Shown: in pieces, positions 2,098 through 41,658 of the stretch
Position numbering within the stretch: position 1 is the first letter of the stretch
Layout of the letters: every line of letters starts with the position of its first letter
Virus record (IMG/VR): IMGVR_UViG_3300043707_000036
Location: 1-44,208 of that record
Strand: one strand, 5' to 3'
Length of the DNA stretch: 44,208 bases
Source of the DNA: a virus
Taxonomy: Duplodnaviria; Caudoviricetes
The notes under the pieces: generated by a model
What the model was told of the DNA's origin: nothing
Seen by the model: the letters and a program-made list of their open reading frames with translations, nothing else
Database searches by the model: none
Made by a program: the position numbers and the translations under genes

Positions 2098-2652
2098 GTG
2101 CCCAAGCAAGTCAAACAACTAGCTCCTCTCCTCACCCTCTTTGAGACAGCCTCCGGCTGCTACAGCCTGCGGCTGAGCGAAGTCTCGAAACGTGCCACTT
2201 TCCTCTCCATAGAGGTAGCCAAGCTCCTCCCAGACGCCCGCTCCCTCCAGGTCATCACTCCCAACGACATGAAAGTCTTCGACCTGGCCTCCGAAAGACA
2301 GGAGGCCGAAGCGGCTGACGCCTCCTACAAAGCCTTCAAGGAACAAGAGTTAGCTCAACGCAACGAAGCTGACATGCCCCCCAATCCTTTCGAGGAAACC
2401 GGACCTCCCATGTCCATGGACCAGGTCGTCGAGATAGAAGCTCAGGAGGATCAGAAGTCCAATGGCCAAGACAAACGCTTCCGCAGTCCCAAGCCGCGCC
2501 TTGGCAAGATGGCTGGATTCGACGAGCCGTGCCAACGTTGCTCGGGCACTGGACAGGTCCAGACCCTCATGGAAGGTGGACGACCCGCCACCGGAACTTG
2601 TCCAGTTTGTCAGGGAGAGAAACAGATTAGGCGCTTCGGAGCCAAGCGCTGA
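2098..2652 (+). CDS. Protein with C-terminal DnaJ-type zinc finger (start uncertain)
   Basis: CQRCSGTG...CPVCQGEK (CxxCxGxG-type repeats). Confidence 0.7.
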   Translation: MPKQVKQLAPLLTLFETASGCYSLRLSEVSKRATFLSIEVAKLLPDARSLQVITPNDMKVFDLASERQEAEAADASYKAFKEQELAQRNEADMPPNPFEETGPPMSMDQVVEIEAQEDQKSNGQDKRFRSPKPRLGKMAGFDEPCQRCSGTGQVQTLMEGGRPATGTCPVCQGEKQIRRFGAKR

Positions 2653-2669
2653 CCTCCGGCCTCCCAACC

Positions 2670-2795
2670 ATGTGGTGGAGACGCCTGGTCTGCATCCTGG
2701 CAGGTCATCACTGGCCCCCCTGGACGGCCCTCGACGAGAACGTATGGTGCATGCGCTGTGGCAAACTCATTCAACAGAAAGGAACCCACAAATGA
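2670..2795 (+). CDS. 41-aa zinc-ribbon protein (C..GH.W...CxRCG type)
   Basis: Read manually: MWWRRLVCILAGHHWPPWTALDENVWCMRCGKLIQQKGTHK; ATGA overlap with next gene. Confidence 0.7.
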   Translation: MWWRRLVCILAGHHWPPWTALDENVWCMRCGKLIQQKGTHK

Positions 2796-3013
2796 CCCAC
2801 TCCCTGAAAGACAAACTGGAAGCTATCTTCACTTACCACGACAACCCCGACCTCATCCCTCACTACGAAGCCATCCGCGAGAAGGCCAGAGAATTTGCTG
2901 TAGTCATCCTTGACAACACTCCCGAGTGTGCCGACCAGAGTGCAGCCATCCGCCTGGTCCGCGAAGCAGTAATGACCGCCAACGCCTCCATCGCCCTGGG
3001 AGGATTGGTGTGA
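2792..3013 (+). CDS. Acb2/Tad1-like helical-hairpin protein (candidate immune-signal sponge)
   Basis: FTYH...YEAIREKAREFA.VI...TPECADQSAAIRLVREAVMTANASIA; AAAGGA RBS. Confidence 0.7.
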   Translation: MTHSLKDKLEAIFTYHDNPDLIPHYEAIREKAREFAVVILDNTPECADQSAAIRLVREAVMTANASIALGGLV

Positions 3014-3407: not shown

Positions 3408-3951
3408 AGCTGGCCGCCGAGGTGGCCTGGCCAAGCACCGCAACTCCAAACGTGCCGACCCTGTCGTGATCGAAGGGGAAGTCAGCCAGCAGACTCATGC
3501 CATCCAAGCCAGGTGGGCTGCCGAGAAAGGTTCGGAAGAAGAGGTCACCGACTACTTCAGGAAGAGTGTCACCATCGAAGACGGCCTCCAACTCCTTGCC
3601 AGAATGCGCAAGAACTGTGAACTAGCCAGCTACGCCCTGAATGCCCGCATCACCGCCGACAATGACCGGGACAGGTGTGAGTTCTGCGGTGGCCGCAAAA
3701 AGGACCGCAAACAATGGGCCCTAGTCAGGCCCTTTCGAGATCCCACTACCATGTTAGTACGCAACCACTACTTCTGCTCCATCGAATGCGTAGCCCTCAT
3801 GAATAGACGGGACCAGGGAGTTTACGGCGTAAGCGACCGTGGCATGACTCCCGCCATGAATCCCCGCAACCACCCTGGCGAGAGAGGGGACGAACCAGCC
3901 CGCCTAGAAGCCGCAGTCAAGGAAGCATCCAAGAATGCTGAACCTTCATAA
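3379..3951 (+). CDS. Zinc-finger protein, candidate terminase small subunit
   Basis: Directly upstream of and overlapping TerL; EAGRRGG (KGG-like) motif and CEFC...FCSIEC zinc finger; TerS call is positional only. Confidence 0.5.
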   Translation: MTWTKQDAIEAGRRGGLAKHRNSKRADPVVIEGEVSQQTHAIQARWAAEKGSEEEVTDYFRKSVTIEDGLQLLARMRKNCELASYALNARITADNDRDRCEFCGGRKKDRKQWALVRPFRDPTTMLVRNHYFCSIECVALMNRRDQGVYGVSDRGMTPAMNPRNHPGERGDEPARLEAAVKEASKNAEPS

Positions 3952-5698
3952 CTTCGAGAGACTGTGCCACCGCCTGCCCATCAAGGACCGGGACACCGGC
4001 CTCTACCGCCGCTTCTCTTTCAACACTTCCCAGCAAAAGATCATGAAGCACCTCTACCAACGCCGGGAGAAAGGCTATCCCCTCTGGCTAATTTTCCTGA
4101 AAGCCCGTAGATTGGGTATCTCCACCTTTGTCAGAGCGATGTTGATAGCTCAGCAGTTGCAGAAGAAGAACTGCCAGGGCATGATTGTCGCCCAACTTGC
4201 CGAGACTGCGAGGGAACTATTCAATGAAGCAGTCCTGTTTGCCGAAGCCTTACCTTTCCATCTTCCTGCGCATACCCAACGAGAACTCTATTTCCCGCAC
4301 AGTGGAGGTGTCTCCAGCCTGCGCCGAGCAACTGCAAAAACAGTTATCGGAGGGCGAGGACTCACTCTTAATGGTGTTCATCTCACCGAAGCAGCTTTCT
4401 ATCCAGGAGAACAGAGTTTTGTTGCGCTTATTAACACGGTCTCGACGGAAGATCCCGACAACATGGTCGTCATCGAAACTACGGCAAACGGTATTGAAGG
4501 TCCTGGAGAAACATACTTCAACTACTGGAACGATGCTGTCGCTGGTAAAAACAACTTCATGCCTATCTTCCTCCCCTGGTGGGAAGACGCCTCAAGTTTC
4601 TTTCCAGACCGACTAGCCGAGGACGCCCCTGCCGACGACTACGAAAAGTGGTTGATGAAGGAATTCAAGGTCACCAAAGGTCAAATAGCATGGTACAGAC
4701 AAACTAAAGCAACTAAGTGTGGTGACTCTCCCAGTGTGTGGGCCCAGGAATATCCAGCCGACCCAAGCGAAGCTTTCCTCTCCAGCGGCAACCCAGTCTT
4801 CGACCGCGAAGAGATGCAGATGGCCATGAAGACTGTGGAGGAACCTAAGTGGCGTGGCCGCATCCGCCTCACCGGAGTCAACCCCGACAAACTCAATCCC
4901 AACGACCTCTACCGTGGCACCGCCACCTTTGAACAGACCAACTCCGGCAACCTACTCATCTGGGAAGAACCCAATCCAGGAGACCATTACTATGTTGGAG
5001 TGGATGCTGCTAAGGGCAATGTTGATGGGGATTTTGCCGCCGCTGTCGGATGGAATGCCGAGACCGGAGACCAAGCCTTTCGATACTCTTCCAAAGTTGG
5101 ACCTGAGCACCTGGCCTTCTACATCAACGCCCTGGGTCGACGCTACAACAATGCGGTCATTAACATCGAACTCACCGGAGGCTGGGGATGGGCCTGCATG
5201 AAAGAACTGCGTGACCGCTACCACTACCCCCAGCAATACCTCTGGATGTCCAAGGACGACCGTCCCGACCGCAAACCTCGCATGGCCCTTGGCTGGGAGA
5301 CCACCCTCAACTCCCGCAAGCGTCTCCTCATCGTCTACCGCACCAGTCTGCGCCAGGGCATCATGCACTCCAAGGACATCGAGACCGTCCAGCAAATGGT
5401 CAACATCCAGAACGAGATGGCCTTCAACTGGACCGTCACCAAAGGTCACGATGACATCCTGTTCGCCGCTATGCTGGGCTGGATAGCCTGCATCGACCAT
5501 CACTTCCCTCACGGAGGCCAACCAAGAGTTGCCCAGACTTATGTTGAAGATGCCAAGCCCAAAGTTGACTGGATCGAATCCCCGGAAACTTCTAGTTGGG
5601 GAATCCTGGGATGGTCCTCCACCGCCCACTTAACCAAACTCAACCTATGGAAGTCCCGTGAACGCACCAAGAACAAGAGCCTCCTGGAAGGCATATGA
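3935..5698 (+). CDS. terL: Terminase large subunit
   Basis: Walker A LKARRLGIST, Walker B VHLTEAAF, coupling motif ETTANG, RNase H-like nuclease YYVGVDAAKG...DF and GHDDILFA. Confidence 0.95.
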   Translation: MLNLHNFERLCHRLPIKDRDTGLYRRFSFNTSQQKIMKHLYQRREKGYPLWLIFLKARRLGISTFVRAMLIAQQLQKKNCQGMIVAQLAETARELFNEAVLFAEALPFHLPAHTQRELYFPHSGGVSSLRRATAKTVIGGRGLTLNGVHLTEAAFYPGEQSFVALINTVSTEDPDNMVVIETTANGIEGPGETYFNYWNDAVAGKNNFMPIFLPWWEDASSFFPDRLAEDAPADDYEKWLMKEFKVTKGQIAWYRQTKATKCGDSPSVWAQEYPADPSEAFLSSGNPVFDREEMQMAMKTVEEPKWRGRIRLTGVNPDKLNPNDLYRGTATFEQTNSGNLLIWEEPNPGDHYYVGVDAAKGNVDGDFAAAVGWNAETGDQAFRYSSKVGPEHLAFYINALGRRYNNAVINIELTGGWGWACMKELRDRYHYPQQYLWMSKDDRPDRKPRMALGWETTLNSRKRLLIVYRTSLRQGIMHSKDIETVQQMVNIQNEMAFNWTVTKGHDDILFAAMLGWIACIDHHFPHGGQPRVAQTYVEDAKPKVDWIESPETSSWGILGWSSTAHLTKLNLWKSRERTKNKSLLEGI

Positions 5699-6655: not shown

Positions 6656-8338
6656 ATGGCCATCTATACCATCTCGACCAAGAAGACCGCTCCCGACCTG
6701 GACCCTCGTGCCCGTCACATCGACGAATGGGTGAGGGTGGCCGACGACAAGCGTAACCAGGTCCTGGGCATCGACTGGATGAACCAGATGGAGCTGTTCT
6801 ACGCCCTGACCACTATGGGCGGACCAATGCCCTCTTACCGGCCCTTAGTCAAAGTGCCGGAGCTGCAAACCCTGATGATGCGTGAGGCCAACGACCTCTC
6901 TGAGATCATGCCCCGCCCCTACATCATCAACGAAGACGATGGCAAGCGTGACAAGGACCGTGAGAAAGGTCTGCAATCGGAGTGGGCCCGAGCCCAGCTC
7001 AACTTCCACTCCATGTTCACCATCCTCATGTCGCTCTTCGTAGGTACTGCACCTATGCAGATAGGCTTCAACCCGGAATCCAGGAATGGCAAAGGTGCTC
7101 TGTGGGCCAAGATGCGTCCACCCGACTCCTGGCATCCCGACCCCTTCACTACCTACGAACTGGACTGGTCCTATGTTGTTGTCGAAGATTACATGTACCT
7201 GGAACGAGTGCGAAAACTATGGCCGGACACTAGTGTGGGACTCAAGCCCCGAGTCGCAGGACGCTCCGTATCCCCCTCTATCGGAGACAGCGGATATGGC
7301 TTCCAGATGCCTCCTGGTCCAATGTCCATGGTTCCTGGAATGCCCAATAGTCGAACGCTTCCTAACGACAACCGAGTCTGTGTGAGGTGGTGCTTCTGTG
7401 AGGACTATACCCGCGTCCGTATCGAAGACAAGCAGCTTCCAGACGGTGCAATTGTCCCAGCGGATTTTGAGTGGAAGTACCCAAATGGTCGTCTCCTGGT
7501 GGAGTCGGAAGGTCGGATACTTCAGGATGGGGACAACCCTTATCCGCTCAAGATGTTTCCCATCATTCCTTTTTGGAGTACCTTGCCCTTATATGGTCTA
7601 TGGACCATTCCAGCAGTACGTTTTTCCCACGATCTGCAAAGTCTCTCCGAAAGGATGTGGACCCAACTCTACGAGAATGCCGTCAGACTCAACAACGGAG
7701 TCTGGCTAATAGGTGAGAATACGGGTATTGATCCAGAGAAGTTTGGAGGCATGCCTGGTGAGGTACAGACAATAAATGCCAACTCCATCCGAGAAATCGA
7801 ATGCAAGTTTCCCCCTGCTTTTCCTCAGCACTTCATCACCCTCCCGCAACTTCTACTTGATAAGCAAAAGGAACTCCAGGGATTTACTGCTGCACGCCAA
7901 GGTCAGCCTGGAGCTGGAAACATCTCCCCAGAACTCTTCGACGCAAGCATCATGCGTAGTCAAGGCCTTACTCAGTTACGCGGCAGGCTCAACGCCTTCA
8001 CCTTCCAACGAATAGCTGAGTTCATGTACTACACCATGTGCCGCTACTACCGCCCCCAAAATCTCTCACTCAGGGGTGACCACGACGTCGAGTCGGTAGA
8101 GTGGAAACTGGCTCCCCGTCCCGACCAATACGACGTCCTCCTGGATTCAGCCTCTATCAGAGCCCTCTCTCAGGGTATGGTCCAACGCATGATTCCAGAC
8201 CTGCTGAAACTAGGAGCTGTAGACAAGCGGACTGCTCTTGAACAGCTTGAGTTCCCCGATGCAGGCGCAGTAGCTGAACGTATAGAGCGGGCTGAGGAGC
8301 TTGCTGCCTTGGCCAGGACCAGGGGAGTCCGAAGATGA
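6656..8338 (+). CDS. Portal protein
   Basis: 560 aa, between TerL and scaffold/MCP; FPIIPF, DLQ..SERMWTQL.EN, ELQGFT..RQG segments typical of P22-like portals. Confidence 0.85.
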   Translation: MAIYTISTKKTAPDLDPRARHIDEWVRVADDKRNQVLGIDWMNQMELFYALTTMGGPMPSYRPLVKVPELQTLMMREANDLSEIMPRPYIINEDDGKRDKDREKGLQSEWARAQLNFHSMFTILMSLFVGTAPMQIGFNPESRNGKGALWAKMRPPDSWHPDPFTTYELDWSYVVVEDYMYLERVRKLWPDTSVGLKPRVAGRSVSPSIGDSGYGFQMPPGPMSMVPGMPNSRTLPNDNRVCVRWCFCEDYTRVRIEDKQLPDGAIVPADFEWKYPNGRLLVESEGRILQDGDNPYPLKMFPIIPFWSTLPLYGLWTIPAVRFSHDLQSLSERMWTQLYENAVRLNNGVWLIGENTGIDPEKFGGMPGEVQTINANSIREIECKFPPAFPQHFITLPQLLLDKQKELQGFTAARQGQPGAGNISPELFDASIMRSQGLTQLRGRLNAFTFQRIAEFMYYTMCRYYRPQNLSLRGDHDVESVEWKLAPRPDQYDVLLDSASIRALSQGMVQRMIPDLLKLGAVDKRTALEQLEFPDAGAVAERIERAEELAALARTRGVRR

Positions 8339-8574
8339 GGGGAGAGTGGCTCACCTTCCGTGAACTCTCCCTAGTAACCAACATTGGCTGGAACAAACTC
8401 CGTTACCTCCGTGACTCCGGGGTCCTCACCGACCTGGGCATGATCCTCTACCAGAAGCCCTGCCACAAGCACTCCAGGTGGTGGATATGGGTTCCGAGCG
8501 TATTTTGTCACTCCCAGTTGCTTTCCCCCACCCAGCAAGTTGACTATCCTCCACGGGATGTACCGAAAACTTGA
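8335..8574 (+). CDS. Hypothetical protein, possible HTH/excisionase-like
   Basis: WLTFRELSLVTNIGWNKLRYL; ATGA coupled to portal. Confidence 0.5.
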   Translation: MRGEWLTFRELSLVTNIGWNKLRYLRDSGVLTDLGMILYQKPCHKHSRWWIWVPSVFCHSQLLSPTQQVDYPPRDVPKT

Positions 8575-8803
8575 GATCCTGAAGCGCAGCTCCCCTCACG
8601 ACGATGGCTGGATTGACCTGACTCTAGCACTTGACGGCAAACTAGCCGACCTGATGGTCAACCAACGGGACCTGGAAGGCAAATCCGAAGCCTGGTTCCA
8701 AGCCTTCTGTGTGAGGACAGCCGACTCTCTGATCTCAACCTACGGCGACTACCGCCACCAGCGAGATAGGTTCTCCGCTCTCCCTCTGGTGGAAAATCAA
8801 TGA
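8558..8803 (+). CDS. Hypothetical protein
   Basis: ORF track, first ATG used. Confidence 0.65.
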   Translation: MYRKLEILKRSSPHDDGWIDLTLALDGKLADLMVNQRDLEGKSEAWFQAFCVRTADSLISTYGDYRHQRDRFSALPLVENQ

Positions 8804-8817
8804 GAGGAGGTGCCCCT

Positions 8818-8886
8818 ATGTTCGAGCCTGGAAGGTTTGAAGAGAAGGGACGAGGCCGTCGGCGTCGTCATCGTAGTCGCAGGTAA
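8818..8886 (+). CDS. 22-aa protamine-like peptide
   Basis: MFEPGRFEEKGRGRRRRHRSRR; strong RBS GAGGAGGT. Confidence 0.7.
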   Translation: MFEPGRFEEKGRGRRRRHRSRR

Positions 8887-8899
8887 GGAGGAATCATCC

Positions 8900-8971
8900 A
8901 TGGCCGCAACACGTAGACCCGGAAGGGGCCGTCCTCGTGGTCCGAGTGGTCGCCGCCCAAGGAGGTACTAA
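8900..8971 (+). CDS. 23-aa Arg-rich peptide with AT-hook-like RGRPR
   Basis: MAATRRPGRGRPRGPSGRRPRRY; TAAGGAGG RBS; TAATG coupling downstream. Confidence 0.7.
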   Translation: MAATRRPGRGRPRGPSGRRPRRY

Positions 8972-9147
8972 TGCCAGAGAGCATGGGCAAGAACTTCGAT
9001 GACAGAATCCTCAAGTCTCCCTTGACTGTAGGGAGGCCGAGGAAAGAGCCCGGTCCCGATGTGAATAACAGTCCGGTAGCTGTCCCCGATGACCCACTCA
9101 GGATCATCCCGGACAACTCGAAACGTATGACACGAAGGGACGACTAA
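8971..9147 (+). CDS. 58-aa protein with GRPRK motif
   Basis: MPESMGKNFDDRILKSPLTVGRPRKEPG...; AAGGAGGT RBS. Confidence 0.7.
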   Translation: MPESMGKNFDDRILKSPLTVGRPRKEPGPDVNNSPVAVPDDPLRIIPDNSKRMTRRDD

Positions 9148-9148
9148 C

Positions 9149-9325
9149 ATGGCTGTCTCTCGGACTAACCGGCACAACGCAGGGGGCCGCAACAACTTAC
9201 ATGCGGCTCCCTTCATGCACTTCATGCCGCCTCATCACAGGACGCTGCCCAAGACTGGACCGCATCGCAGCTACAATCCGCTGCCTGGCCGCAGGCGGGG
9301 CAGGAGTGGCCGTAGCCGTTATTGA
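9149..9325 (+). CDS. 58-aa Arg/His-rich protein
   Basis: MAVSRTNRHN...PGRRRGRSGRSRY; tiles exactly between its neighbours. Confidence 0.65.
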   Translation: MAVSRTNRHNAGGRNNLHAAPFMHFMPPHHRTLPKTGPHRSYNPLPGRRRGRSGRSRY

Positions 9326-9328
9326 CTT

Positions 9329-9757
9329 ATGGCGACCTCACCTGTAGCTCCCGATCCAGTCCGAGCCATGATGGCCCGCCAGCTGATCCAGCGTATGGCT
9401 GGTGGCTTGGGCGGGGCCAACGACCAGGCCATGGGTGCTCAACTGGGTGGCCAATTCTCCCAGCTTCAAGGAGCTGACCCTCAGTTCATGCTCAAGGCTC
9501 TCAACCAAATCAAGATGATGATGGTGCCTCTCTACGGCAGGGCGGCCTTTGCCGTCCCTGAGGTCAGCAGGCACATAGCCCAGGCTCAGAAGAGTGTAGA
9601 CGCAGCTATCAAAGCGGCTGAACAAGGTGCTGCCACTCAGCAAAGTGTTAGACCAATAGCCAACAACGCCGCCATGCCCAACCCAGTCCAGGGTCCAGGA
9701 ATGGGTGAACCCGCGAGTGGCCCACCTGGCGGTGGTGGTGTTCCAGGATTGCCTTAA
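9329..9757 (+). CDS. Hypothetical head-region protein (Gly/Ala/Gln-rich)
   Basis: AGGAG RBS, position before scaffold. Confidence 0.75.
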   Translation: MATSPVAPDPVRAMMARQLIQRMAGGLGGANDQAMGAQLGGQFSQLQGADPQFMLKALNQIKMMMVPLYGRAAFAVPEVSRHIAQAQKSVDAAIKAAEQGAATQQSVRPIANNAAMPNPVQGPGMGEPASGPPGGGGVPGLP

Positions 9758-9993
9758 TGGCTAGAGGCGGACAAGTTGGTGGAGGAGGCTTTCATGCCCC
9801 TACCCGGACTGCTCCTGTTCGGCCTGAGCGGCGTGGTGGAAGGGAAGATGACGACAGGCGCAGACCTGAGGGTGGGGAGGAACGCGAAGGTGGAGGAATC
9901 TTCGTCTTCGGCTATCCCCGGCACTGTCCACCCGACAAGAGGTGGTCCCGTAGCCGAGGAAGGTGTGTACGTCGTCGTAGGAGACGAGACTGA
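9757..9993 (+). CDS. Arg/Gly-rich protein with poly-Arg C-terminus
   Basis: TAATG coupling; ends RWSRSRGRCVRRRRRRD. Confidence 0.6.
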   Translation: MARGGQVGGGGFHAPTRTAPVRPERRGGREDDDRRRPEGGEEREGGGIFVFGYPRHCPPDKRWSRSRGRCVRRRRRRD

Positions 9994-10022
9994 CCGAGGA
10001 GATAACTCCTCAGGAGTAGAGG

Positions 10023-10889
10023 ATGCCAAATCGTAGCTGGGCAGACATTTTATCTGACAAGGGCTTGGCCGACGACATTGTTCTGGACCTCAAGGACGGT
10101 ACTAGCCGCACCTTGGGCGACCTTCGAGCCTGGAACCGCGAGACGGAGGGGGCGACCGCCAAGAGACTCTCCCAACAGGAAGACGCTCTGAAGCAGCGTG
10201 AGGCTCAGCTGGGCAATGCTGAGATCGAGCTGATGCAACGAGTCGACAGCTACTCCAAGGGCATGGGCATATCGGTCGAAGACTTCGTCACAGGCAAAGG
10301 CAACCCTGCCAGCCACCTACCTACCGCTCCCTCAAAGCGTGACGTGGCCCAACAAACTGGCCTGGACGAAAACGATCCCCTGGTAGGTGAAGTAGTCAAA
10401 CAGCTTAAAGCTCTTGCTGCCCGCCTGGACAAGACGGATGCTGCCCTGACCGAACAGCGCGAGAAGGTCCTGAAACCTATCGTTGCCACCTATCTCAACG
10501 ATAACTATGAACTGCAGTGGGAGCGTGCCCGGCGTGATCTCCCCAAAAAGGCTCAGGAAAAACTCACCTACGAGGATGCCCTCAAGCACGCCGAGCGGCG
10601 AGGCATGAAGGACCGTGCCGGTCGCCTGGACGTGGCTGAGGCTGCCCGTGACCTGGCCCGCCCCTTCGAACAGGATGAGTGGCGCGAGACCGAACGGGCC
10701 AAGATGCGCAAGGAACTCAAGGACGAACAATTCGCCTCCTCCCTGCCCAAGCCTGGTCAGCAGGGTCCCCGCAGTGGAGTCCCCAAAGGTTTCAAAGACG
10801 AGAAGGGCCGCACCAAGAGTTTCGACCAAGTATTGAACGACGCTGCAAACGATGCTGAACTGTGGCGTGGCATTGCGACTGAACAATAA
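10023..10889 (+). CDS. Capsid scaffolding protein (putative)
   Basis: Charged helical/coiled-coil protein immediately upstream of MCP. Confidence 0.7.
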   Translation: MPNRSWADILSDKGLADDIVLDLKDGTSRTLGDLRAWNRETEGATAKRLSQQEDALKQREAQLGNAEIELMQRVDSYSKGMGISVEDFVTGKGNPASHLPTAPSKRDVAQQTGLDENDPLVGEVVKQLKALAARLDKTDAALTEQREKVLKPIVATYLNDNYELQWERARRDLPKKAQEKLTYEDALKHAERRGMKDRAGRLDVAEAARDLARPFEQDEWRETERAKMRKELKDEQFASSLPKPGQQGPRSGVPKGFKDEKGRTKSFDQVLNDAANDAELWRGIATEQ

Positions 10890-10900
10890 GGAGCCTAGTT

Positions 10901-11890
10901 ATGGCACTAAGTGTAGTTGGTCTAGGTCTGGCAAGTCCGCCAGTTCAACTTAGTAACACCGTCAATGCCATCAGCCAGAAGTACATTGTGCCGGTGCTAG
11001 GTGACAACGTCTTCAAGCCCAGTCCAGTCTTCTGGGGACTCACCAGAGAAGGTAAAAAATTTGGTGCCGGTGAACTAGTCTTCCCAGAAATCAACCAGGA
11101 AGAACTTCCTGGTGGCGCGTATTATGGGGACCAGCTCCTAGACACGTCGGTAGTGGACTCCATTCAGCCTGCCAATCAACAATGGCGTCCCTACCGACAG
11201 CCCATTGTTATCCCCATCACCGATATCATCCTCAACCGTGGTGGAGCAGGCAACTTAGACATCATCAAAGCCAAGTATCAAGTAGCCAGTGCTAGCTTCC
11301 TGACTAAGTTGTGTAGAGCTTTGTGGCACACCTCTCCACAGAACACCTCCAACGACATCGACGACGTAGACGCCTGGGTGGGTCAGACCACCAACGTGAT
11401 TGCAGGCATCGACAGGTCTCAACCTGGGAATGCTTTCTGGCAACCTGCCGCCAACGTCAACAACAACTCTGGTGCCCTGACTCCTCAAGTGGCCGAGGCA
11501 GCCTACCAGTCGGTGGTCTTCGGCTACGACGAACCCGACCTGATGCCCATCTCCCAACCCCGTTATGCAGGCTTCAAGAATAACTTCACCCCTCTGAACC
11601 GTTTCACTGACGGCTGGCAGGATGAGGAAGCCGTTCAGGTAGGCTTCAGGAATCACTTTCTCTTCAACAACGCCATAGTGATTCCTGACTTATTCGCCTT
11701 AGCTAACTCAGCTTACTTCCTGAACTCCAAGTACATCTTCCCCGTGTTCCACGAAGCCGACTATTTCAACGTGGACCCCTTCATTAAGCCCACTAACCAA
11801 CGAGTCCTTGTGTCCACTATGTACCTAACGTGGCAACTTAGTAACATCTCACCACGTATGGGAGTCAAGATCATAGGCATCACCGCGTAA
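10901..11890 (+). CDS. Major capsid protein (HK97 fold)
   Basis: 329 aa, TAAGGAG RBS, DNVFK.SP, IAGIDRS...FW, GF....FNNA..IPD, YFLNSKY motifs. Confidence 0.85.
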   Translation: MALSVVGLGLASPPVQLSNTVNAISQKYIVPVLGDNVFKPSPVFWGLTREGKKFGAGELVFPEINQEELPGGAYYGDQLLDTSVVDSIQPANQQWRPYRQPIVIPITDIILNRGGAGNLDIIKAKYQVASASFLTKLCRALWHTSPQNTSNDIDDVDAWVGQTTNVIAGIDRSQPGNAFWQPAANVNNNSGALTPQVAEAAYQSVVFGYDEPDLMPISQPRYAGFKNNFTPLNRFTDGWQDEEAVQVGFRNHFLFNNAIVIPDLFALANSAYFLNSKYIFPVFHEADYFNVDPFIKPTNQRVLVSTMYLTWQLSNISPRMGVKIIGITA

Positions 11891-17838: not shown

Positions 17839-17898
17839 ATGGCCTACGGAAGAGGTGGAGTTCGCCGCCGCACCAGCTATCACGGACGCAGGAGATGA
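17839..17898 (+). CDS. 19-aa protamine-like peptide
   Basis: MAYGRGGVRRRTSYHGRRR; TAAGGAGG RBS. Confidence 0.7.
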   Translation: MAYGRGGVRRRTSYHGRRR

Positions 17899-17903
17899 TC
17901 TAG

Positions 17904-18311
17904 GTGGCCGACGCCCCAGAATGGGACATCAAGAGTGCCCGGCGAGTCGCGCCCGGACTGCGAATGCCGAGTACTGCTCGATTCAGCCCTCCACCTTCGA
18001 GGCCGGTGGCTAGCCCTACTGGGGAAGAGGTCAGGATGGCTAGTGAACGCTATGGACCAGAACTGCGAACTCTTGGACGTCCACCAAGTCCCCATTATGC
18101 CGTGCGTGAAGCTCTGCGCTGGGCAGACGTCCCCACTGCCCGCCGCATGTACCGCACCGAAACATCCAGAGTACCTTCTGTCCAGGTCTCTATGGGAGCA
18201 ATAAAGGAACCAGATGAACGCCGCCGCTACCTGGGTGCGATAAGAGATCCAGATAGGCAGAAGTTAGTAAGACCACCTAGTCGAAGCAGACGAAGGAGCC
18301 AGAGAATCTAA
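17904..18311 (+). CDS. Arg/Pro/Ser-rich basic protein
   Basis: AGGAG RBS before GTG; ends RPPSRSRRRSQRI. Confidence 0.65.
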   Translation: MADAPEWDIKSARRVAPGLRMPSTARFSPPPSRPVASPTGEEVRMASERYGPELRTLGRPPSPHYAVREALRWADVPTARRMYRTETSRVPSVQVSMGAIKEPDERRRYLGAIRDPDRQKLVRPPSRSRRRSQRI

Positions 18312-18321
18312 GGAGTAACTT

Positions 18322-18510
18322 ATGGCAGTTATAGGCAACATCTCTAGTGCTGACTTCCAACCTCATGGAGACATAACTGACTTAGCCCGTCCTCCAGGTG
18401 CCGACCGCATTGGTGAGGAGCAGATGGCGGTGCCTCGCCCAACAGGAAGGATAGGAGGCCGGAGGAGTCGTCGAGGGAAGCGTCGTGGGAAACGGAGTGG
18501 AGCTAGGTAA
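18322..18510 (+). CDS. 62-aa protein with Arg-rich tail
   Basis: TAAGGAG RBS; ends GGRRSRRGKRRGKRSGAR. Confidence 0.7.
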   Translation: MAVIGNISSADFQPHGDITDLARPPGADRIGEEQMAVPRPTGRIGGRRSRRGKRRGKRSGAR

Positions 18511-18515
18511 CACTT

Positions 18516-19229
18516 ATGTCTGGTCTACTAGGTAGTATCGGGACCTTCCTTGGTAACAATGTAGGTTGGCTTGCCCCCACCGCAGTGGCTGGTGGAGGTC
18601 TGCTTGCCAACTACCTCCAGCAGAAGCAATACCAGGACCAGCTCAACCGTTACAACGCCGAGCAGCAATTTGCCTTCAACCTAGCCAAGAATCCCCAGGC
18701 TGCCGAGCAATATGTCGCCGGTTACACCCGTCCCATCTCAGCAGGCTTGACTGCAGACATCACCAACGAAGTTCAGGCCAACTTGGGAGAACGTGGTCTG
18801 ACTCTCTCCGGCCCGATCTGGGCCGCGACTCTAGCCCAGGCTCTGGCCCCCGCTTACCAACAAGAACAACAGCTGGGTGCCACCACCGCCGAGAACATGC
18901 TGCGGCTGGGCACCGGCATGGCCCAACCTGAGCAACCCCATCCTTACAACATCTCCGGCTCCTTGGCTGCACTGATGGATAGGTACGGTGCCCGAGGTCC
19001 CGGCACCTCTGGAGGTGGAAGCGATCCAACCCAAGATCCATTTGGTGGTCCTCCCTTCAATCCTGCTGATGTCATCTCTCTTGATCCTAGTGGTGCTCCC
19101 ATCTGGAATGGTTATCCCATAGGAGGAGGGGGAGAGTCTCCTGACTGGACTTCAATCATGGGTGGCTTCACTCCCAGCATCCCCAGTTTTGACATGCCCG
19201 TTATGGGTGGAGGAATAGGAATCAGCTAA
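18516..19229 (+). CDS. Ejection/internal virion protein (putative)
   Basis: Gly-rich hydrophobic N-terminus, Gln-rich helix, LGERGL. Confidence 0.7.
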   Translation: MSGLLGSIGTFLGNNVGWLAPTAVAGGGLLANYLQQKQYQDQLNRYNAEQQFAFNLAKNPQAAEQYVAGYTRPISAGLTADITNEVQANLGERGLTLSGPIWAATLAQALAPAYQQEQQLGATTAENMLRLGTGMAQPEQPHPYNISGSLAALMDRYGARGPGTSGGGSDPTQDPFGGPPFNPADVISLDPSGAPIWNGYPIGGGGESPDWTSIMGGFTPSIPSFDMPVMGGGIGIS

Positions 19230-20347
19230 TGGCAGCCTTCGCTGGAGCACTCGGTTCCCTGGCAGAAAGCTATGGCCTGGCACGCGAACAGGTGATGGAG
19301 GAACGCCGCCAAGCAGCACTGACTCGCCTGGATGAAGAGCGCATGCGCCAGGAGCAGGTGCGCACCCAGTTCGAGCGAGAACGCCTGCAGATGGAACGAG
19401 ACCTGGCCAACCGTCCCATGTTCCTTGGCCAACCCTACAGCAGAGGAGGTAAGCGATACATCCAGCAATGGAGTCCTCAGGAGGGCAAGCTGGGTGAAGT
19501 AGAACTGGGTGAGGAGGAGAGTGCCCTGCAAAAGTATGTACGTGAGCGTACTGCGGCGGGCTATGGAAAGCCTACTGAGGAGCAAATAGAGACGGAGTTC
19601 TACAAGGTAAAGCCCGGCACTACGACAGCAGCCACCACTTCGGAAGATGAGATCAATGCTTATTACTGGCACTACGCAGGACTGGTGCCTACTGGAGAGA
19701 AGGCACAGGCGGGAGCGAAGCGAGTGATGCTGGCCAAAGGGTGGGGTCCTGGCCGTAAGCCCACTGGCATGGAACAACGCACCATAGAGCAGACCAAGGT
19801 GGCGGAAGATCTTACCCGACAGCTTCGCAAATTCATTGAGGACAACAAACTGACTGAGAGTGACAGCTGGGGAACGCTTGCACGTAGATACTTAGTAAGT
19901 GGAGAGTATCTAGCAGGACGCAAACCGCAGAATCCAATAGATGAGCAACTGACATTAGTATCCTCTGCTGTAAGTTACCTGGGAACGTTACCCTATATGC
20001 AGGGTGGTCGAGGTAAGGCCTACATGGAAGTGATAGGTCAACACATGCCTCATATGCGGGACACTCCTGCCAACATGTACTCCAAGTCCAAACAGATGTT
20101 GCAGATCCTCGACAAAATTAAGAAGGATGTCAGTACTCGGGGAGAGGAGTGGACTCCAGGTGCCCCAGGTAGTATGGAACCTCCAGCCATGGAAGAGGCT
20201 CCTGGAGGTGGAGGTGAACTAGTTTTTCCAGCAATCACCATTCCTCCTGAAGGAGGTGCGGCACCCCAAGGGCGTCAGACCGTAGCTCCACCAAGCCGCA
20301 TGCCCATCATCCACTTTAACGAAGACGGAAGCATGGAGATCCGCTGA
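19229..20347 (+). CDS. Ejection/internal virion protein (putative)
   Basis: AFAGALGSLA N-terminus plus coiled coil; coupled. Confidence 0.65.
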   Translation: MAAFAGALGSLAESYGLAREQVMEERRQAALTRLDEERMRQEQVRTQFERERLQMERDLANRPMFLGQPYSRGGKRYIQQWSPQEGKLGEVELGEEESALQKYVRERTAAGYGKPTEEQIETEFYKVKPGTTTAATTSEDEINAYYWHYAGLVPTGEKAQAGAKRVMLAKGWGPGRKPTGMEQRTIEQTKVAEDLTRQLRKFIEDNKLTESDSWGTLARRYLVSGEYLAGRKPQNPIDEQLTLVSSAVSYLGTLPYMQGGRGKAYMEVIGQHMPHMRDTPANMYSKSKQMLQILDKIKKDVSTRGEEWTPGAPGSMEPPAMEEAPGGGGELVFPAITIPPEGGAAPQGRQTVAPPSRMPIIHFNEDGSMEIR

Positions 20348-22183
20348 GTGGCTGACACCTCCAATCCGTTTGCTCAGTACACTCCAGAGCAGCAGGCCTA
20401 TCTTCGTCAACAGCTTGTGAGCATGCTGCGCTCCGGTAAACTTAATCCCGCTCAGCAGCGTACTGCCATGGGAGCCTTCTACCGCTCTAGTCCTCAGGCT
20501 GGCAAATCCACCAATCGACTAATCTTCGGAGAGTCTCCTTATATGGCTGGGGCCCGTAACCTGGGACGTGGTGTGTGGGATATAGCCAGGGGAACAGTGG
20601 GAACCTTCGATCCTCGTGCCCGGACTCCCAGGGAGCAGGAGATCATGCAGAAGGAAGGTGGCATCCTTCAACTTGCTCCCACCCGCGCCCTCGAAAGTCT
20701 CTGGGGAGGTCTCAGAGGACTTCCCCGTGTCCCCAGTGCTCTAGGTGACATCTTCTTCCGCTCAGTTGAACCCGACGTTCCAGGAGGCCCTCTACGCACC
20801 GCTGGGCTGAAGGCAGCCCTGACGGAGGCTCCTCGTCTGGCTGGTCAACTAGGAGGAGCAGAGCTGCTGGCCAGAGGTCCTGAATTGGCCTCCAAAGCAG
20901 TCCCCACCAGCACTCGAGCAGGTCGAGGCTTCGACTACGTAGAAGGCCAAATAGGCCGTTATCCTTCCCTTTTCCGCAACTCTACCATCAACTCTGCGGT
21001 TGATGCTCTACATCGCATGTCGACTGGAGTAGAATCTGGCAAACTTGGGACCCTCCTGCGTAACTTCCTCAACGAGGGCTACTACTCTCCCAACGGCATC
21101 AGCTTCAAACGTGCCCGTGACTACCGCAGTGACGTGAACTCAGTCCTCTTCGACCGGGAGGCCACCAGTGAGGTTAAGAACTTAGCCAGCAAGTTTGCTG
21201 ATGCTCTAGCTAAGGATCTGAGTACCACAACTCGCTATTACGGTGGGGAACGTCTGCAACGCATCTACGACGCTTCCAATCGTGAATATTCGCTGGCCGA
21301 TAAGTACAGGAAGGCTGCTGGATTTGCAGGCAGGATCATGGGTCCAGTCATTGGTGGAGGTATAGGTTACCAAATTGGGCGGATGCCTGGAGAGTTGGTT
21401 GGAGCTGGTCTGGGAGGTATGGGAGCAGGTCTGAGCTATGCAGGTGAACGTCTGGGCTGGTTTGGCGGCCCCCCAATTGGAAGCAGGTTGGCCGACATAG
21501 CACTGAGACGGGGAGCTGGACGCAGTCTGCCTGGAGTCCCAGGCCGGATAACTCCTTACCTGCGTCCACTAACCTATGGATCTGCCGCTGTAGGAGCAGG
21601 GGCAGGGGCTCCAGGATTCCGCATCCCAGCTCCTCTGGTAGGTCCCGACCAGAAGAGAGCCAGGCTCTCGCCGGAGGAACTCAACCAACTAGTCAACCAA
21701 GCTGCTGCCTCCACTGGCCTCGATCCCCGTATGGTCAGCAGCATAATGGGCATAGAAGATCCCAAGGGTGATCCCATGGCAGTGTCTCCTAAGGGAGCCA
21801 TGGGCTACATGCAGCTGATGCCTGGAACGGCCAAGGGCTTAGGTGTCACCGATCCCTTCGATCCCCGGCAGAACATCCCAGGAGGCGCTCGTTACTTCCG
21901 CCAGATGCTCGACCGCTACCACGGCAACATGGCTCTTGCCCTGGCTGCTTACAACGCCGGTCCAGGCGAAGTAGACAAGTATGGAGGCATTCCGCCAAAG
22001 GCTTTGCCCTATGTTCGGGCTGTGATCTCTCGTTACCTCAATCAACCTAGACAAGCTCAAGCTCTGCCTCCGGCACCAGAAGAGGTACCACCTCCGACTC
22101 CGGCCCCGGCCACAAGGCAGCTCCACGCCTTCGGCATTCCCGGACAGCCTCCACCACCAGGAAACTATGCCGTATCAGAGTAA
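20348..22183 (+). CDS. Ejection protein with C-terminal lytic transglycosylase (SLT) domain
   Basis: IMGIE...AVSPKGAMGYMQLMPGTA...DPRQNI.GGARY...ALAAYNAGPG. Confidence 0.9.
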   Translation: MADTSNPFAQYTPEQQAYLRQQLVSMLRSGKLNPAQQRTAMGAFYRSSPQAGKSTNRLIFGESPYMAGARNLGRGVWDIARGTVGTFDPRARTPREQEIMQKEGGILQLAPTRALESLWGGLRGLPRVPSALGDIFFRSVEPDVPGGPLRTAGLKAALTEAPRLAGQLGGAELLARGPELASKAVPTSTRAGRGFDYVEGQIGRYPSLFRNSTINSAVDALHRMSTGVESGKLGTLLRNFLNEGYYSPNGISFKRARDYRSDVNSVLFDREATSEVKNLASKFADALAKDLSTTTRYYGGERLQRIYDASNREYSLADKYRKAAGFAGRIMGPVIGGGIGYQIGRMPGELVGAGLGGMGAGLSYAGERLGWFGGPPIGSRLADIALRRGAGRSLPGVPGRITPYLRPLTYGSAAVGAGAGAPGFRIPAPLVGPDQKRARLSPEELNQLVNQAAASTGLDPRMVSSIMGIEDPKGDPMAVSPKGAMGYMQLMPGTAKGLGVTDPFDPRQNIPGGARYFRQMLDRYHGNMALALAAYNAGPGEVDKYGGIPPKALPYVRAVISRYLNQPRQAQALPPAPEEVPPPTPAPATRQLHAFGIPGQPPPPGNYAVSE

Positions 22184-22391
22184 AGCTCAGCAACGACTGT
22201 TCTTTGCCAAGGAGGCCAGGGGAGAGCTGCCTGCGGGCACCGCCGAGAGGTGGGCCCACGAAACTCCCAACCTTAAACGTCTCCCCCAGCACAAGAGGGG
22301 GAAGAAAGGAGGTCGCATGGCACGTAGAGGACGTAGACGAAAAGTATTAGTCCCTGCATCGCGTAGAGCTGCCAGAGCGCGACGGAGGTAG
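22167..22391 (+). CDS. Basic protein (MP.xSKAQ family) with possible in-frame internal start at 22317
   Basis: MPYQSKAQQRLFFA...; AGGAGG before internal ATG giving MARRGRRRKVLVPASRRAARARRR. Confidence 0.7.
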   Translation: MPYQSKAQQRLFFAKEARGELPAGTAERWAHETPNLKRLPQHKRGKKGGRMARRGRRRKVLVPASRRAARARRR

Positions 22392-22393
22392 GT

Positions 22394-22606
22394 ATGGCCA
22401 AGAAGAAACGGTCCCGCAAGTTCATCCAGAAAGCTGTCGCCCGGATGGAGGAGAAGGGAACTGTCGGAGCATTTGGAGCAGCCACTCCCAAGAAGATTGC
22501 CAGGGCTAAGGCCAAGGGAGGCCTCCAGGCCAAGCGTGCTATCTTCGCGGAGAACATGCGCAAAATTGCCCGGCGTAGGAAGCGTCGTGGTGGAGGTAGA
22601 CGGTGA
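22394..22606 (+). CDS. Lys/Arg-rich basic protein
   Basis: KFIQKA...GA...KKIARA..KGG..AKRA.FAEN; GGAGGT RBS. Confidence 0.75.
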   Translation: MAKKKRSRKFIQKAVARMEEKGTVGAFGAATPKKIARAKAKGGLQAKRAIFAENMRKIARRRKRRGGGRR

Positions 22607-29083: not shown

Positions 29084-29205
29084 TGCTACAAGGAACTTGT
29101 GACTGGACTCATGTCATGGAGAACGAAGGCCTGGGTGGGTTGATCGTAGCCATTATCTGGGGAATCTGGAGCTGGTTCAGGCGGCATAAGACTGCTACTA
29201 AGTAA
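29080..29205 (+). CDS. 41-aa single-TM protein (holin-like candidate)
   Basis: Read manually: ...GLGGLIVAIIWGIWSWFRRHKTATK; ATGA coupled; last gene of late operon. Confidence 0.5.
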   Translation: MMLQGTCDWTHVMENEGLGGLIVAIIWGIWSWFRRHKTATK

Positions 29206-30391
29206 GTGGCTGCATCTCTCCCAGGTTGGGGCCAACCTTCAGCTCAACTCCCACTGACAGGCCTCCAAGCTCCGGGAATGGCTTGGTCATGGTTTGCTGA
29301 ACTTGGCGGGCAACCTGGTCTACGTCATTCTCTGGAACCTCTATCCAAAACGAATCATGAACCAGGTTCCTGAGACCAGCAGCTACTGCCCGGTGCTCGA
29401 CTAGCTCCAACAGGTACTCGGTCTGCATGGCCGAGGCATCACTGGAGGGGACGAAGGCCACAGCCCGCTTGGCATCCTCCCCATGCACCCACTTCCACTT
29501 CTCCCCAGTAAGCTGCTGTTCAGCTGGAGTTGTCCTCTTCCGGTTGTACACAGAGAAGAAGTAGTGCCTGTACTGGAAGTGATTGTCCAGGTAGGTCTCC
29601 AAGTGGGCCCGGTCTATGGTTGCCTGCTGCCACTGTCTCAACTTGGGAAATAGTCCAAAGTAGAACTCCTGGAACTCCTTGGCCTTCTTCCTGGTGGGAA
29701 AGTACTCCGGGTACTCATCATGTAATCCAAAGTGACTCAGGAGGTAGTTCGATCCGTGGACTCCCCTTTTGGCTGCTTCCCTGATCTCCGGGTAGTCGTG
29801 CTTGAACTCGTGGAACTCAACCTTGAGGGTGGCATCGTCCAGACCAAGGTTGACGCTCTGGCCCGTCCAGTGGAGTCCCACGAAATCGTGAATTCCCAGC
29901 TTAGCCAGTCGTATGTAGTCTGGGTCTCCGGCACAGAACCCAACAAGTACTGCCTCAATAGCGGAACTGTCTGCTTCGAGGAGGACATGACCAGGGGCAG
30001 CCACCAGCATGCGCCGGAAGAGTCGGGCCAGGTCATTTCTTGCCGGGATGTTCTGCAGATTAACCTGCCTAGAACTCTTGCGCCACGTCGACGGATTGAA
30101 GCCATAAGTCGTGCCCACACGGCCATCACCTCTCAGCTTCCAGATGTAGGTACTGATCATCTTCTCCCGGCGTTGACATTCCAGAATGGTCTGAAACACC
30201 GGAAACTTTTTGGCAAACCTTTCCAGGTGCTTGCCGTCACTAGTCTCATCCCCAGTTTTACGCTTCCTGGGGACTTTGAGCTTGTAGTGCCTCACCAAGT
30301 CGAGCTTCTGTCTCCAGCTGGCAGGATTGAACTCCAAGAGCTGCTCATACTCCGTGACCTTGCCCGTGTCTCCACACTTCTTACAGGTCAA
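29198..30391 (-). CDS. polA: Family A DNA polymerase, C-terminal (polymerase) part of split gene
   Basis: FNPAS..Q, NLQNIP, motif A LLEADSSAIE, motif B R...K...HGSNY, motif C LVHDS; TTG start 30391 with GAGGAG RBS giving MTCKKCGDTG. Confidence 0.92.
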   Translation of the reverse strand: MTCKKCGDTGKVTEYEQLLEFNPASWRQKLDLVRHYKLKVPRKRKTGDETSDGKHLERFAKKFPVFQTILECQRREKMISTYIWKLRGDGRVGTTYGFNPSTWRKSSRQVNLQNIPARNDLARLFRRMLVAAPGHVLLEADSSAIEAVLVGFCAGDPDYIRLAKLGIHDFVGLHWTGQSVNLGLDDATLKVEFHEFKHDYPEIREAAKRGVHGSNYLLSHFGLHDEYPEYFPTRKKAKEFQEFYFGLFPKLRQWQQATIDRAHLETYLDNHFQYRHYFFSVYNRKRTTPAEQQLTGEKWKWVHGEDAKRAVAFVPSSDASAMQTEYLLELVEHRAVAAGLRNLVHDSFWIEVPENDVDQVARQVQQTMTKPFPELGGLSVGVELKVGPNLGEMQPLT

Positions 30392-30555
30392 ACGAATCTC
30401 CTCTCCACCTCTTTGGGAACCTCTATCCCAGCCCTCCTGAGCAGCTCCCACAACATCCACAGGTTGACGTTGCACTCCGCTCCGTCACAGTGCTTGCGGT
30501 GGTGGTCGGCCAGGTTCAGGGCATTCATCAACAGAGCCTCATCTAAGACATTCAT
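30388..30555 (-). CDS. 55-aa hypothetical protein inside polA split
   Basis: Read manually: MNVLDEALLMNALNLADHHRKHCDGAECNVNLWMLWELLRRAGIEVPKEVERRFV; ATGA and TTGA overlaps. Confidence 0.7.
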   Translation of the reverse strand: MNVLDEALLMNALNLADHHRKHCDGAECNVNLWMLWELLRRAGIEVPKEVERRFV

Positions 30556-30970: not shown

Positions 30971-31182
30971 TGGGGATGGACCGGCTGCTCGGCCTCCTGG
31001 AACAGCTCCTTCTGCTTACGATTGCGCCTGGACCTGGCTACAACCTGGTGGGCATTGTCTCCATCTGCTTGCTGGCGTGCCTTGAGCATCTCCTTGACCA
31101 CGTTCAAAACTGCCTCGGCTGCTGCGAGTGGAGCGGTTGCAAAGTAATCTACAACTCTGGCTTCTGGATCAACTTTCCTCAT
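30967..31182 (-). CDS. Hypothetical protein inside polA split
   Basis: MRKVDPEARVVDYFATAPL...; RBS within the end of the polA N-part; ATGA overlap. Confidence 0.75.
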   Translation of the reverse strand: MRKVDPEARVVDYFATAPLAAAEAVLNVVKEMLKARQQADGDNAHQVVARSRRNRKQKELFQEAEQPVHPQ

Positions 31183-41115: not shown

Positions 41116-41658
41116 TTATGCTTGCCTCCGTACCCACTTTTGCGTCAGTCCGACAGCAACCAGGCCTGTCGCAATCAACAACAAGGAGGCCGGTTCCGGC
41201 ACTGTCGATACTCTGCTAGTGAGTACCTGAGTGCTAAGATTGCCGTGGTTGTCCTCGATCACGGCAGCCGCACCGTTCCGAAAATTGGCGTTCAGGAAAG
41301 TAGTTCCACCCACTATGGAGATGGTGCCACCTGTGAACGTCCCCTGGAATAGTTCCTTACCATTCAATCCATCAACGTCTACTGTGCCTCCCATGAAAGA
41401 GAAGCCTGAGGTGGAAGTCATCAGAGTCCCCGAGAGGACTGTAATGCTCCCCAGAATGCCGTGCTGCATGGTGCCAGTGGTGATGTCCTCGATGAGGGTC
41501 AGCTGGTCCCTGACTCCCCAGAACCTTCCTGCGGCAATGCGCCCGAATATAGTCGCAGTCCCAGCAGCTATGTTGCCCGAGCCCTGAAAGTCGAAACTAT
41601 CTGCGACTGTCAGGGGACAGAAGAATAGCAGCAAAGCCACTACTAGCGCTAACTTCAT
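41116..41658 (-). CDS. PEP-CTERM surface protein
   Basis: Signal peptide MKLALVVALLLFFCPLTVA-D; C-terminal VPEPASLLLIATGLVAVG...RR. Confidence 0.92.
   Translation of the reverse strand: MKLALVVALLLFFCPLTVADSFDFQGSGNIAAGTATIFGRIAAGRFWGVRDQLTLIEDITTGTMQHGILGSITVLSGTLMTSTSGFSFMGGTVDVDGLNGKELFQGTFTGGTISIVGGTTFLNANFRNGAAAVIEDNHGNLSTQVLTSRVSTVPEPASLLLIATGLVAVGLTQKWVRRQA

Follow-up and report, generated by a model that had tools for sequence, protein, structure and literature searches.

Tiny arginine- and lysine-rich genes between the portal and scaffold genes of a clade of tailed phages, and the predicted pseudoknot leaders that precede some of them

Small basic proteins encoded by the virus itself have been recorded for the Adenoviridae, Asfarviridae and Baculoviridae (PMC3281028), and in adenovirus the proteins VII and mu condense the genome inside the particle (PMC8156859). 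For tailed phages the prevailing view, as put forward in a 2012 account, is that the DNA is neutralised by polyamines and metal ions, with little contribution from basic proteins (PMC3281028). Here we describe a set of genes for tiny, Arg- and Lys-rich peptides located between the portal gene and a scaffold-like gene in the virus record IMGVR_UViG_3300043707_000036 of IMG/VR (44,208 bases, the whole of which is called the window below) and in its relatives. In the window the region holds five short open reading frames (ORFs), m1 to m5 (Table 1). If the reading that we favour is true, a clade with several selected polycation genes among its head genes, together with their RNA control, would be a counter-example to the prevailing view.

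The likeness to adenovirus VII and mu and to baculovirus P6.9 is that of small, very basic, virus-encoded proteins, whereas here the setting is a tailed phage with a terminase-portal motor, the genes are several and as short as 11 codons, and an RNA leader predicted to cover the Shine-Dalgarno (SD) sequence usually precedes one of them. No homology to the VII, mu or P6.9 families was found by Pfam and PHROGs scans, which have low power at 22 amino acids (aa). The J protein of microviruses is likewise basic, its gene lies just before the capsid gene, and it has a C-terminal aromatic anchor in the shell. J/VP8 is described as a small phage protein of the capsid interior (PMC11945456), but it belongs to a single gene of a small, single-stranded DNA capsid, while here the head is that of a double-stranded DNA (dsDNA) phage, with tailed-phage terminase, portal and head genes in the window, and the genes are multiple and variable, with no detected homology to J/VP8. 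VP2 of SSV1, a DNA-binding protein purified from the virions of a prokaryotic dsDNA virus, has a patchy distribution and can be dispensed with (PMC3367457); SSV1 is an archaeal spindle virus, and its VP2 has no link to peptides encoded between portal and scaffold. A tailed-phage precedent for small packaged extras is provided by the internal proteins IPI–III of T4, which are non-essential and present at about 360 copies each in the head; IPI, a folded and specific inhibitor, shields the DNA from GmrSD restriction, IPII and IPIII bear an N-terminal targeting sequence, and all three are trimmed by gp21 (PMC9958956). The peptides described here are far shorter and have no shared leader sequence, and no maturation or prohead protease was found among the 40 window proteins scanned, on a contig that may be incomplete. 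As to RNA control, the gene 32 mRNA of T4 has a pseudoknot through which gp32, once in excess over its DNA ligand, represses its own synthesis; this pseudoknot, lying upstream, nucleates the coating of an unstructured ribosome binding site (RBS) (PMC3014915). Common to the two cases is a phage mRNA pseudoknot preceding the gene of a protein that binds nucleic acid without sequence specificity (binding being predicted here); the difference is that here a helix is predicted to pair with the SD itself. The peptides would thus work like VII/mu, VP2 or J/VP8, yet by homology and context they belong to none of these.

Relatives were collected by a search with the capsid protein, which gave 72 IMG/VR loci; 68 portal-scaffold intervals were taken and reduced to 48 (window included) by deduplication at 85% nucleotide identity. 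Basic micro-ORFs were defined by a length of 10–65 aa, an SD of at least 5 nucleotides (nt), an Arg plus Lys content of at least 30% and a net charge of at least +5. By this filter, 47 of the 48 intervals hold at least one SD-led basic micro-ORF, and the lone interval that fails it, L011, has a peptide behind a variant SD. In total, 119 of 178 SD-led micro-ORFs are basic, where dinucleotide shuffles lead one to expect 0.95 and the reverse strand has 1; their density is 1.33 per kb in the intervals vs 0.056 per kb in the flanks. Among 14 more distant loci, with capsids 56–62% identical, 13 have a basic micro-ORF under a relaxed filter. The coding character of these ORFs is also visible in their substitutions. 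In protein-blind nucleotide alignments of three alignable peptide families, made with no preselection, change is highest at third positions (0.39 vs 0.23/0.15, 0.41 vs 0.30/0.24 and 0.52 vs 0.34/0.32); the ratio of non-synonymous to synonymous substitution (dN/dS) is 0.37, 0.38 and 0.21, from pairs preselected at ≥60% identity, which biases dN downward. The families show synonymous variation with an invariant protein, and one 15-residue peptide is identical in five loci whose capsids are 83–97% identical. An earlier note on this DNA had described four of the window's ORFs as missed by the gene track; across the clade the micro-ORFs behave as real genes, and tiny Arg/Lys-rich genes in the head region are a conserved clade-wide set.

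The number and order of the peptide genes vary between close relatives, as do their sequences, and charge is therefore the conserved property. Ninety-four distinct peptides of 9–30 aa have a median length of 18 aa and a median charge of +9, with 31.5% Arg, 19.7% Lys (51% of the two together), 10.3% Gly and 8.6% hydrophobic residues; the Arg share of the basic residues ranges from 0.33 to 1.0, and the Arg codons are mixed, with no simple repeat. Residue 2 is Ala in 61 of the 94 and is followed by basic residues. The C-terminal residue is Lys in 67, Tyr in 11 and Arg in 10; 14 of the 94 end in Tyr or Trp, m2 among them, and m4, too long for the set, ends in Tyr. The C-terminus of m2, Arg-Arg-Tyr, is also that of the slot-2 peptides of loci L004 and L006. 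The m4 slot, which holds a peptide of +10 to +16 in 23 of 46 intervals (window included), stays within that range of charge across barely alignable sequences; the slot peptide of L004 aligns weakly with m4 (37% identity over 35 aa, E 7e-05). Charge is kept and sequence mostly is not, a pattern that would be expected of polycation DNA binders. The term protamine-like, used by the earlier note, describes m1, m2, m4 and the 94 peptides well enough, as they are small, rich in Arg and Lys, poor in hydrophobic residues and encoded with late structural genes; PHROGs and Pfam scans of the micro-proteins gave no match, with low power for low-complexity peptides of 22 aa.

All five ORFs reported by the earlier note were recovered in the window, at the same coordinates and with the same Arg counts, and its near-gapless tiling of 8818–9325 is borne out: 13 nt lie between m1 and m2, m2 and m3 overlap by 1 nt, and 1 nt separates m3 from m4. 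The three strong RBSs proved to be AGGAGG motifs upstream of 8818, 8900 and 8971; m4 starts 1 nt past the preceding stop, without a strong SD. Of the location between portal and scaffold, the portal half is supported by PHROGs, while the scaffold has no family match and is named from its position.

Table 1. Coordinates of the features discussed (in the window unless a locus is given)
Feature	Position	Strand	Description
m1	8818–8886	+	22 aa, 9 Arg, net +7, AGGAGG; corresponds in position to the relatives' first basic peptide
m2	8900–8971	+	23-aa Arg/Gly/Pro peptide, 9 Arg, net +9, AGGAGG
m3	8971–9147	+	58-aa Pro-rich, near-neutral conserved peptide, AGGAGG
m4	9149–9325	+	58-aa His/Arg-rich peptide, 11 Arg, net +12
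m5	9757–9993	+	78 aa, 21 Arg, net +11, Arg-rich tail; weak AGGA, TAATG overlap
Predicted m1 leader pseudoknot, family B	8755–8811	+	stem 8755–8761 with 8786–8792
Family-A leader, examples	L004:4202–4276; L018:4183–4247; L024:3772–3856		32 further intervals
Acidic ORF directly before the cluster	8558–8803	+	81 aa; weak homologues in some relatives
Conserved Gly/Gln/Ala-rich protein	9329–9757	+	142 aa; between cluster and scaffold; no family
Terminase	3935–5698	+	PHROGs/Pfam
Portal protein	6656–8338	+	phrog_156, E 1e-06
Scaffold-like protein	10023–10889	+	named from position; no family match
Major capsid (head) protein	10901–11890	+	phrog_9953, E 4.9e-19
Arg-rich micro-ORF	17839–17898	+	19 aa, AGGAGG, net +7
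62-aa ORF	18322–18510	+	AGGAG; last 20 residues net +11
Basic ORF	22167–22391	+	74 aa, net +20
Basic ORF	22394–22606	+	70 aa, net +23, GGAGG

A second feature of the clade is an RNA leader, and with it and the extra genes given below the feature is richer than first seen. In 53 of 111 loci of relatives, a few contigs being counted there more than once, the spacers that separate the peptide genes share an exact 15-mer. In this leader, family A, the 15-mer lies in the loop of a stem, and the stem sequence varies freely while that of the loop is conserved; pairing is possible between seven bases of the loop and a stretch that overlaps the SD of the following gene. Present in 35 of 48 intervals, the element sits immediately upstream of one peptide gene; what follows is a basic peptide in 34 of these 35 cases, of one type in 29 and of other types in 5; in many copies a variable hairpin is inserted between the stem and the SD. 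Among the distinct stems, 15 of 17 pair at seven of seven positions, vs 26 of 272 cross-pairings. In a covariation set of 22 sequences, picked to include variants, 92% of cells pair vs 40–56% when the strands are slid, two-sided changes occur in all three helices and affect all seven stem pairs, and in the pseudoknot helix, which is paired throughout the set, two sequences have one pair changed on both sides, as is an inner pair. When IMG/VR was scanned with the 15-mer, 26 of 120 exact matches had the partner strand, and 25 of these 26 lead a basic micro-ORF; the other 94 lack a downstream basic-peptide context by the filter used, and most are probably chance matches. In the distant relatives the sequences are other ones and the layout is the same: the partner of the SD-side strand lies 34–43 nt upstream and changes along with it, and in 12 of 14 the best partner pairs at 7–8 of 9 positions, a count that comes with no null. 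Leaders of quite different sequence precede near-identical peptides.

In the window the family-A 15-mer is absent (3 matches at 3 mismatches vs 1.5 expected), and the leader of m1 aligns instead with those of nine relatives, which make up family B. Its loop (8769–8782) can pair with 8802–8811, which contains the SD (duplex –11.1 kcal/mol), and a perfect 7-bp stem is found in 5 of 9 distinct family-B pairs vs 5 of 72 cross-pairings. A covarying pseudoknot at the translation start of the peptide's own gene is present in the relatives, and the leader of the window appears to be a weaker variant of their element. Searches of Rfam 15 gave no match at the gathering score in seven sources, and at E≤5 nothing meaningful in 8600–9400 of the window or in 4000–4400 of L018; the leader is therefore an RNA motif without an Rfam match, worth curating whatever the peptides do. 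In 17 of 29 loci another short conserved motif, with a hairpin behind it, lies up to about 90 nt downstream of the gene for the RGGRR-type peptide (for example near 4309 in L018 and near 3950 in L024).

Beyond the cluster, basic micro-ORFs were counted in 11 genomes, the window and ten near-complete relatives. On the capsid strand 44 of 275 SD-led micro-ORFs are basic, vs 6 of 414 on the opposite strand, and of these 50 together 39 fall in the first 22 kb downstream of terL and on the coding strand, where they are 15.6-fold denser per strand-kb than elsewhere; as the genomes are related, the p-value is not relied on. The basic micro-ORFs are concentrated in the module for virion structure. The window itself has further basic ORFs between 17839 and 22606 (Table 1); the ORF at 22167–22391 has an internal AGGAGG-led start at 22317 that would give a 24-aa peptide of net +12, and 17904–18311 ends in a basic tail. 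By tblastn none of the basic ORFs at 17839–22606 was found in the ten relatives, several of which carry basic ORFs of their own elsewhere in the late module. The protein of 22394–22606 has atlas scores of 0.91–0.93 to unnamed clusters of Uroviricota (tailed phages) and of 0.88 to fusellovirus VP2, a feature-level lead only, as hmmscan gave no Pfam match at E≤10, PF25632 included.

The third ORF of the cluster, m3, is a different kind of part. It had been listed by the earlier note as a GRPRK protein; with 11 basic and 10 acidic residues and an isoelectric point of 8.2 it is not basic, and its homologues have net charges of –1 to +5. An AT-hook has an Arg-Gly-Arg-Pro core, and the AT-hook-like label was rejected since this core is not conserved, being found in 0 of 44 m3 homologues and in 1 of the 94 short basic peptides (m2 alone). 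By tblastn m3 was matched in 68 of the 72 loci, at 41–72% identity aside from identical copies. There are 228 homologues, and among the 120 matches listed all are unnamed or hypothetical; 11 loci from a metagenome scan (m3 identity 58–69%) are none of them closer than those already collected, and tblastn of m3 and of the proteins of 22167–22391 and 22394–22606 against 50,697 GenBank phage records gave no match. The conservation of m3 is about that of the capsid protein and above that of portal and scaffold, with a dN/dS of 0.13 (pairs again preselected at ≥60% identity). Modelled alone, m3 shows no fold (predicted local distance difference test score, pLDDT, 60; predicted template modelling score, pTM, 0.17), its one match among PDB sequences (E 0.16) is a chance match, and its atlas scores of 0.75–0.76 are uninformative. 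A conserved binding partner is likely, for instance the capsid shell, in which case m3 would be a minor protein attached to the shell.

For the basic peptides, the reading that we favour, and to which we give about an even chance, is that these late-made polycations are likely to be taken into the head, where they would offset some of the charge of the DNA, their dose likely being set by translational feedback. The peptides would be translated from late mRNA, as is suggested by SDs as strong as those of the capsid genes, and, since about half of their residues are basic and few are hydrophobic, would be unstructured and bind nucleic acid without sequence preference. At 1.5–6 kDa they could enter the prohead during assembly, or through openings before expansion, and would not ride the DNA through the portal. 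Once inside they would act as spermine does in lambda and T5, weakening the repulsion between DNA segments and reducing the pressure in the head. For a 55-kb genome, the calculated need is about 1,400 copies of a +8 peptide at 10% coverage and about 6,900 at 50%, so that neutralisation would be partial. Spermine lowers the pressure in lambda, and spermidine lowers it in T5 and can partly inhibit ejection (PMC2771126), which would provide both a benefit and a reason for capping the dose. Too much polycation would impede ejection, and the leader pseudoknot would therefore be stabilised by free peptide, or by a different cation, so that synthesis stops; one and the same leader before different peptides argues for the sensing of charge and not of sequence. 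A more far-reaching form, which we consider possible and rather doubtful, would make the peptides phage-encoded "polyamines", polycations of 11–60 residues that adjust the pressure and stability of the genome from within the head, and the SD-covering pseudoknot, of a new class, a charge-deficit sensor that closes when free polycation, whether peptide or host polyamines, is plentiful. Searches of open-licence PMC and bioRxiv texts brought up no tailed-phage precedent for such genes, which supplement tables may list. Gene callers and tryptic proteomics easily overlook genes of such shortness and basicity, and the trait may therefore be hidden in other phages.

Several points weigh against this reading. 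The 2012 account cited above sees no evidence for a large share of basic proteins in the neutralisation of phage dsDNA, and adds that the dense packing of the DNA leaves little room (PMC3281028). A place in the late operon is a sign of timing and not of packaging. The KFLRD-type and VDRRVG-type families keep specific motifs, which suggests specific partners and not plain charge. The genomes are related, so that the counts are not independent, and in Mx8, Mx9 and a third distant record there are no such genes between portal and capsid, the matches being merely out-of-frame inside annotated genes. In the tblastn check proposed by the earlier note, m1, m2, m4 and m5 of the window have no match beyond identical copies; direct reading of the intervals explains these misses, the same slots in relatives being filled by different tiny basic ORFs, but selection is for that reason measured on the relatives' families and on m3. 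The m1 leader folds no better than its shuffles (z –0.75) and has a competing inner stem. A generic pseudoknot detector separates weakly (62 of 112 peptides, 41 of 179 long genes, 357 of 1120 shuffles) and is too noisy to be relied on, so that the case for the pseudoknot rests on covariation.

The same gene-level evidence would fit peptides that are made late but stay in the cytoplasm, where they would compact phage concatemers or the host nucleoid, shield DNA from nucleases and sensors, or silence host genes. Unstructured polycations need no site in a capsid, a packed head is short of room (PMC3281028), and feedback on free peptide would suit titration by cytoplasmic DNA, as for gp32 (PMC3014915); we nevertheless hold this to be unlikely, as the genes lie among head and internal-virion genes and not in the replication module, and the packaging motor would have to strip the bound polycations. 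The length and Arg content of the peptides also recall the lambdoid N and Nun, which are RNA-binding regulators with an arginine-rich motif, and in such a reading the peptides would regulate late expression through the conserved RNA elements as their targets. The conservation of the leader loop in sequence and not just in shape, and the second motif after the peptide gene, speak for it, but the same leader stands before different peptide types, quite different leaders stand before near-identical peptides, Lys freely replaces Arg, and up to five or more scattered late-operon genes per genome exceed the need of one regulator, which makes regulation of this kind quite improbable.

Given a shade less weight again is the proposal that the peptides are inner-shell or assembly parts with fixed sites, like microvirus J/VP8, each of which would, together with m3, dock on the capsid protein in set numbers, tether the outer DNA layer or help to displace the acidic scaffold. 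The place of J/VP8 in the capsid interior (PMC11945456), the capsid-like conservation of m3 and its lack of a fold when alone, the biased C-termini and the 15-residue peptide shared by five loci would all agree with it, whereas gene number and order vary between close relatives, and most peptides are without a hydrophobic anchor. The disruptin of phage phiKT is a cationic, membrane-active lysis protein, and the peptides, being small, cationic and late, could be lysis helpers of that sort; in most families, however, hydrophobic residues are too few for an amphipathic membrane helix, and the genes stand among head genes and not beside an identified lysis cassette, so that this role is very unlikely. 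The least credible explanation is that of chance ORFs, or shadows of structured GC-rich DNA. Very short ORFs are easily found, and m5 has both a competing frame and no homologue, but for the families this is largely refuted by the excess over shuffles and the reverse strand, by synonymous variation around an invariant protein and by the mixed Arg codons.

As to m5 itself, an ORF with an Arg-rich tail is present at 9757–9993, as had been noted, but it is lineage-specific: it lies in an insert of 266 nt, in a slot that is longer than 150 nt in just 2 of 47 intervals and has no content in the other 45, and in the homologue search none of 15 candidates scored (proteins of 42–137 aa only). As there is no homologue and the frame 9776–10036, whose ATG follows AGGAGG, competes with it, we put the odds that m5 is a real gene at about even. 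A split into an acidic or mixed first half and a basic tail is seen in m1 and m5, as in bipartite small proteins of relatives (L004:1807–1947, L038:825–965, L242:4135–4272), often encoded just before the portal gene. Larger ORFs inserted in the peptide cluster just before m3 (L064:about 4000–4430; L017:3842–4204) resemble, by eye, homing-endonuclease genes. On either side of the cluster, the 3' end of the acidic ORF (8558–8803) overlaps the RNA element in the window genome, and the 142-aa protein had no match to Mx8 p46 and weak helical matches only in PDB.

The plus strand of the window also encodes an internal-virion-like protein, a transglycosylase and a tail fibre, and the minus strand DNA polymerase A, a Sak4-like protein and an exonuclease (PHROGs and Pfam scans), which suggests a podovirus-like tailed phage in whose late operon the micro-ORFs would sit. 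The closest cultured capsid matches are those of the Myxococcus phages Mx8 and Mx9, at 27–28% identity; a search of PDB sequences with the capsid profile gave no capsid at E≤1, and the capsid model has a pLDDT of 61 and a pTM of 0.66. No tRNA was found in a scan of the window, and a scan for sigma-70 promoters and terminators stayed at chance level. A possible trace of the host is a single 5.8-kb contig inside a metagenome-assembled genome (MAG) of Terracidiphilus; among 401 genomes of the order to which Terracidiphilus belongs, the m3 gene was found in that one MAG only, and the evidence is too weak for an assignment. The same MAG has a second, distant capsid match (G011:C99:6392–6838, E 1.2e-14). 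Elsewhere in the window, the product of 2462–3013 (+) has an Acb2/Tad1 hairpin domain over the curated cut-off (PF24729, E 2e-09) and is likely an anti-CBASS/Thoeris signal sponge. DNA polymerase A is encoded as two ORFs, 29198–30475 and 31179–32528 (–), about 700 nt apart, of which the N-terminal one bears a domain of the uracil-DNA-glycosylase superfamily; two blocks are found in most relatives too. A 180-aa protein encoded at 41116–41658 (–) has a C-terminal PEP-CTERM motif (PF07589, E 1.5e-05), unusual for a phage, which may hint at a Gram-negative host having an exosortase.

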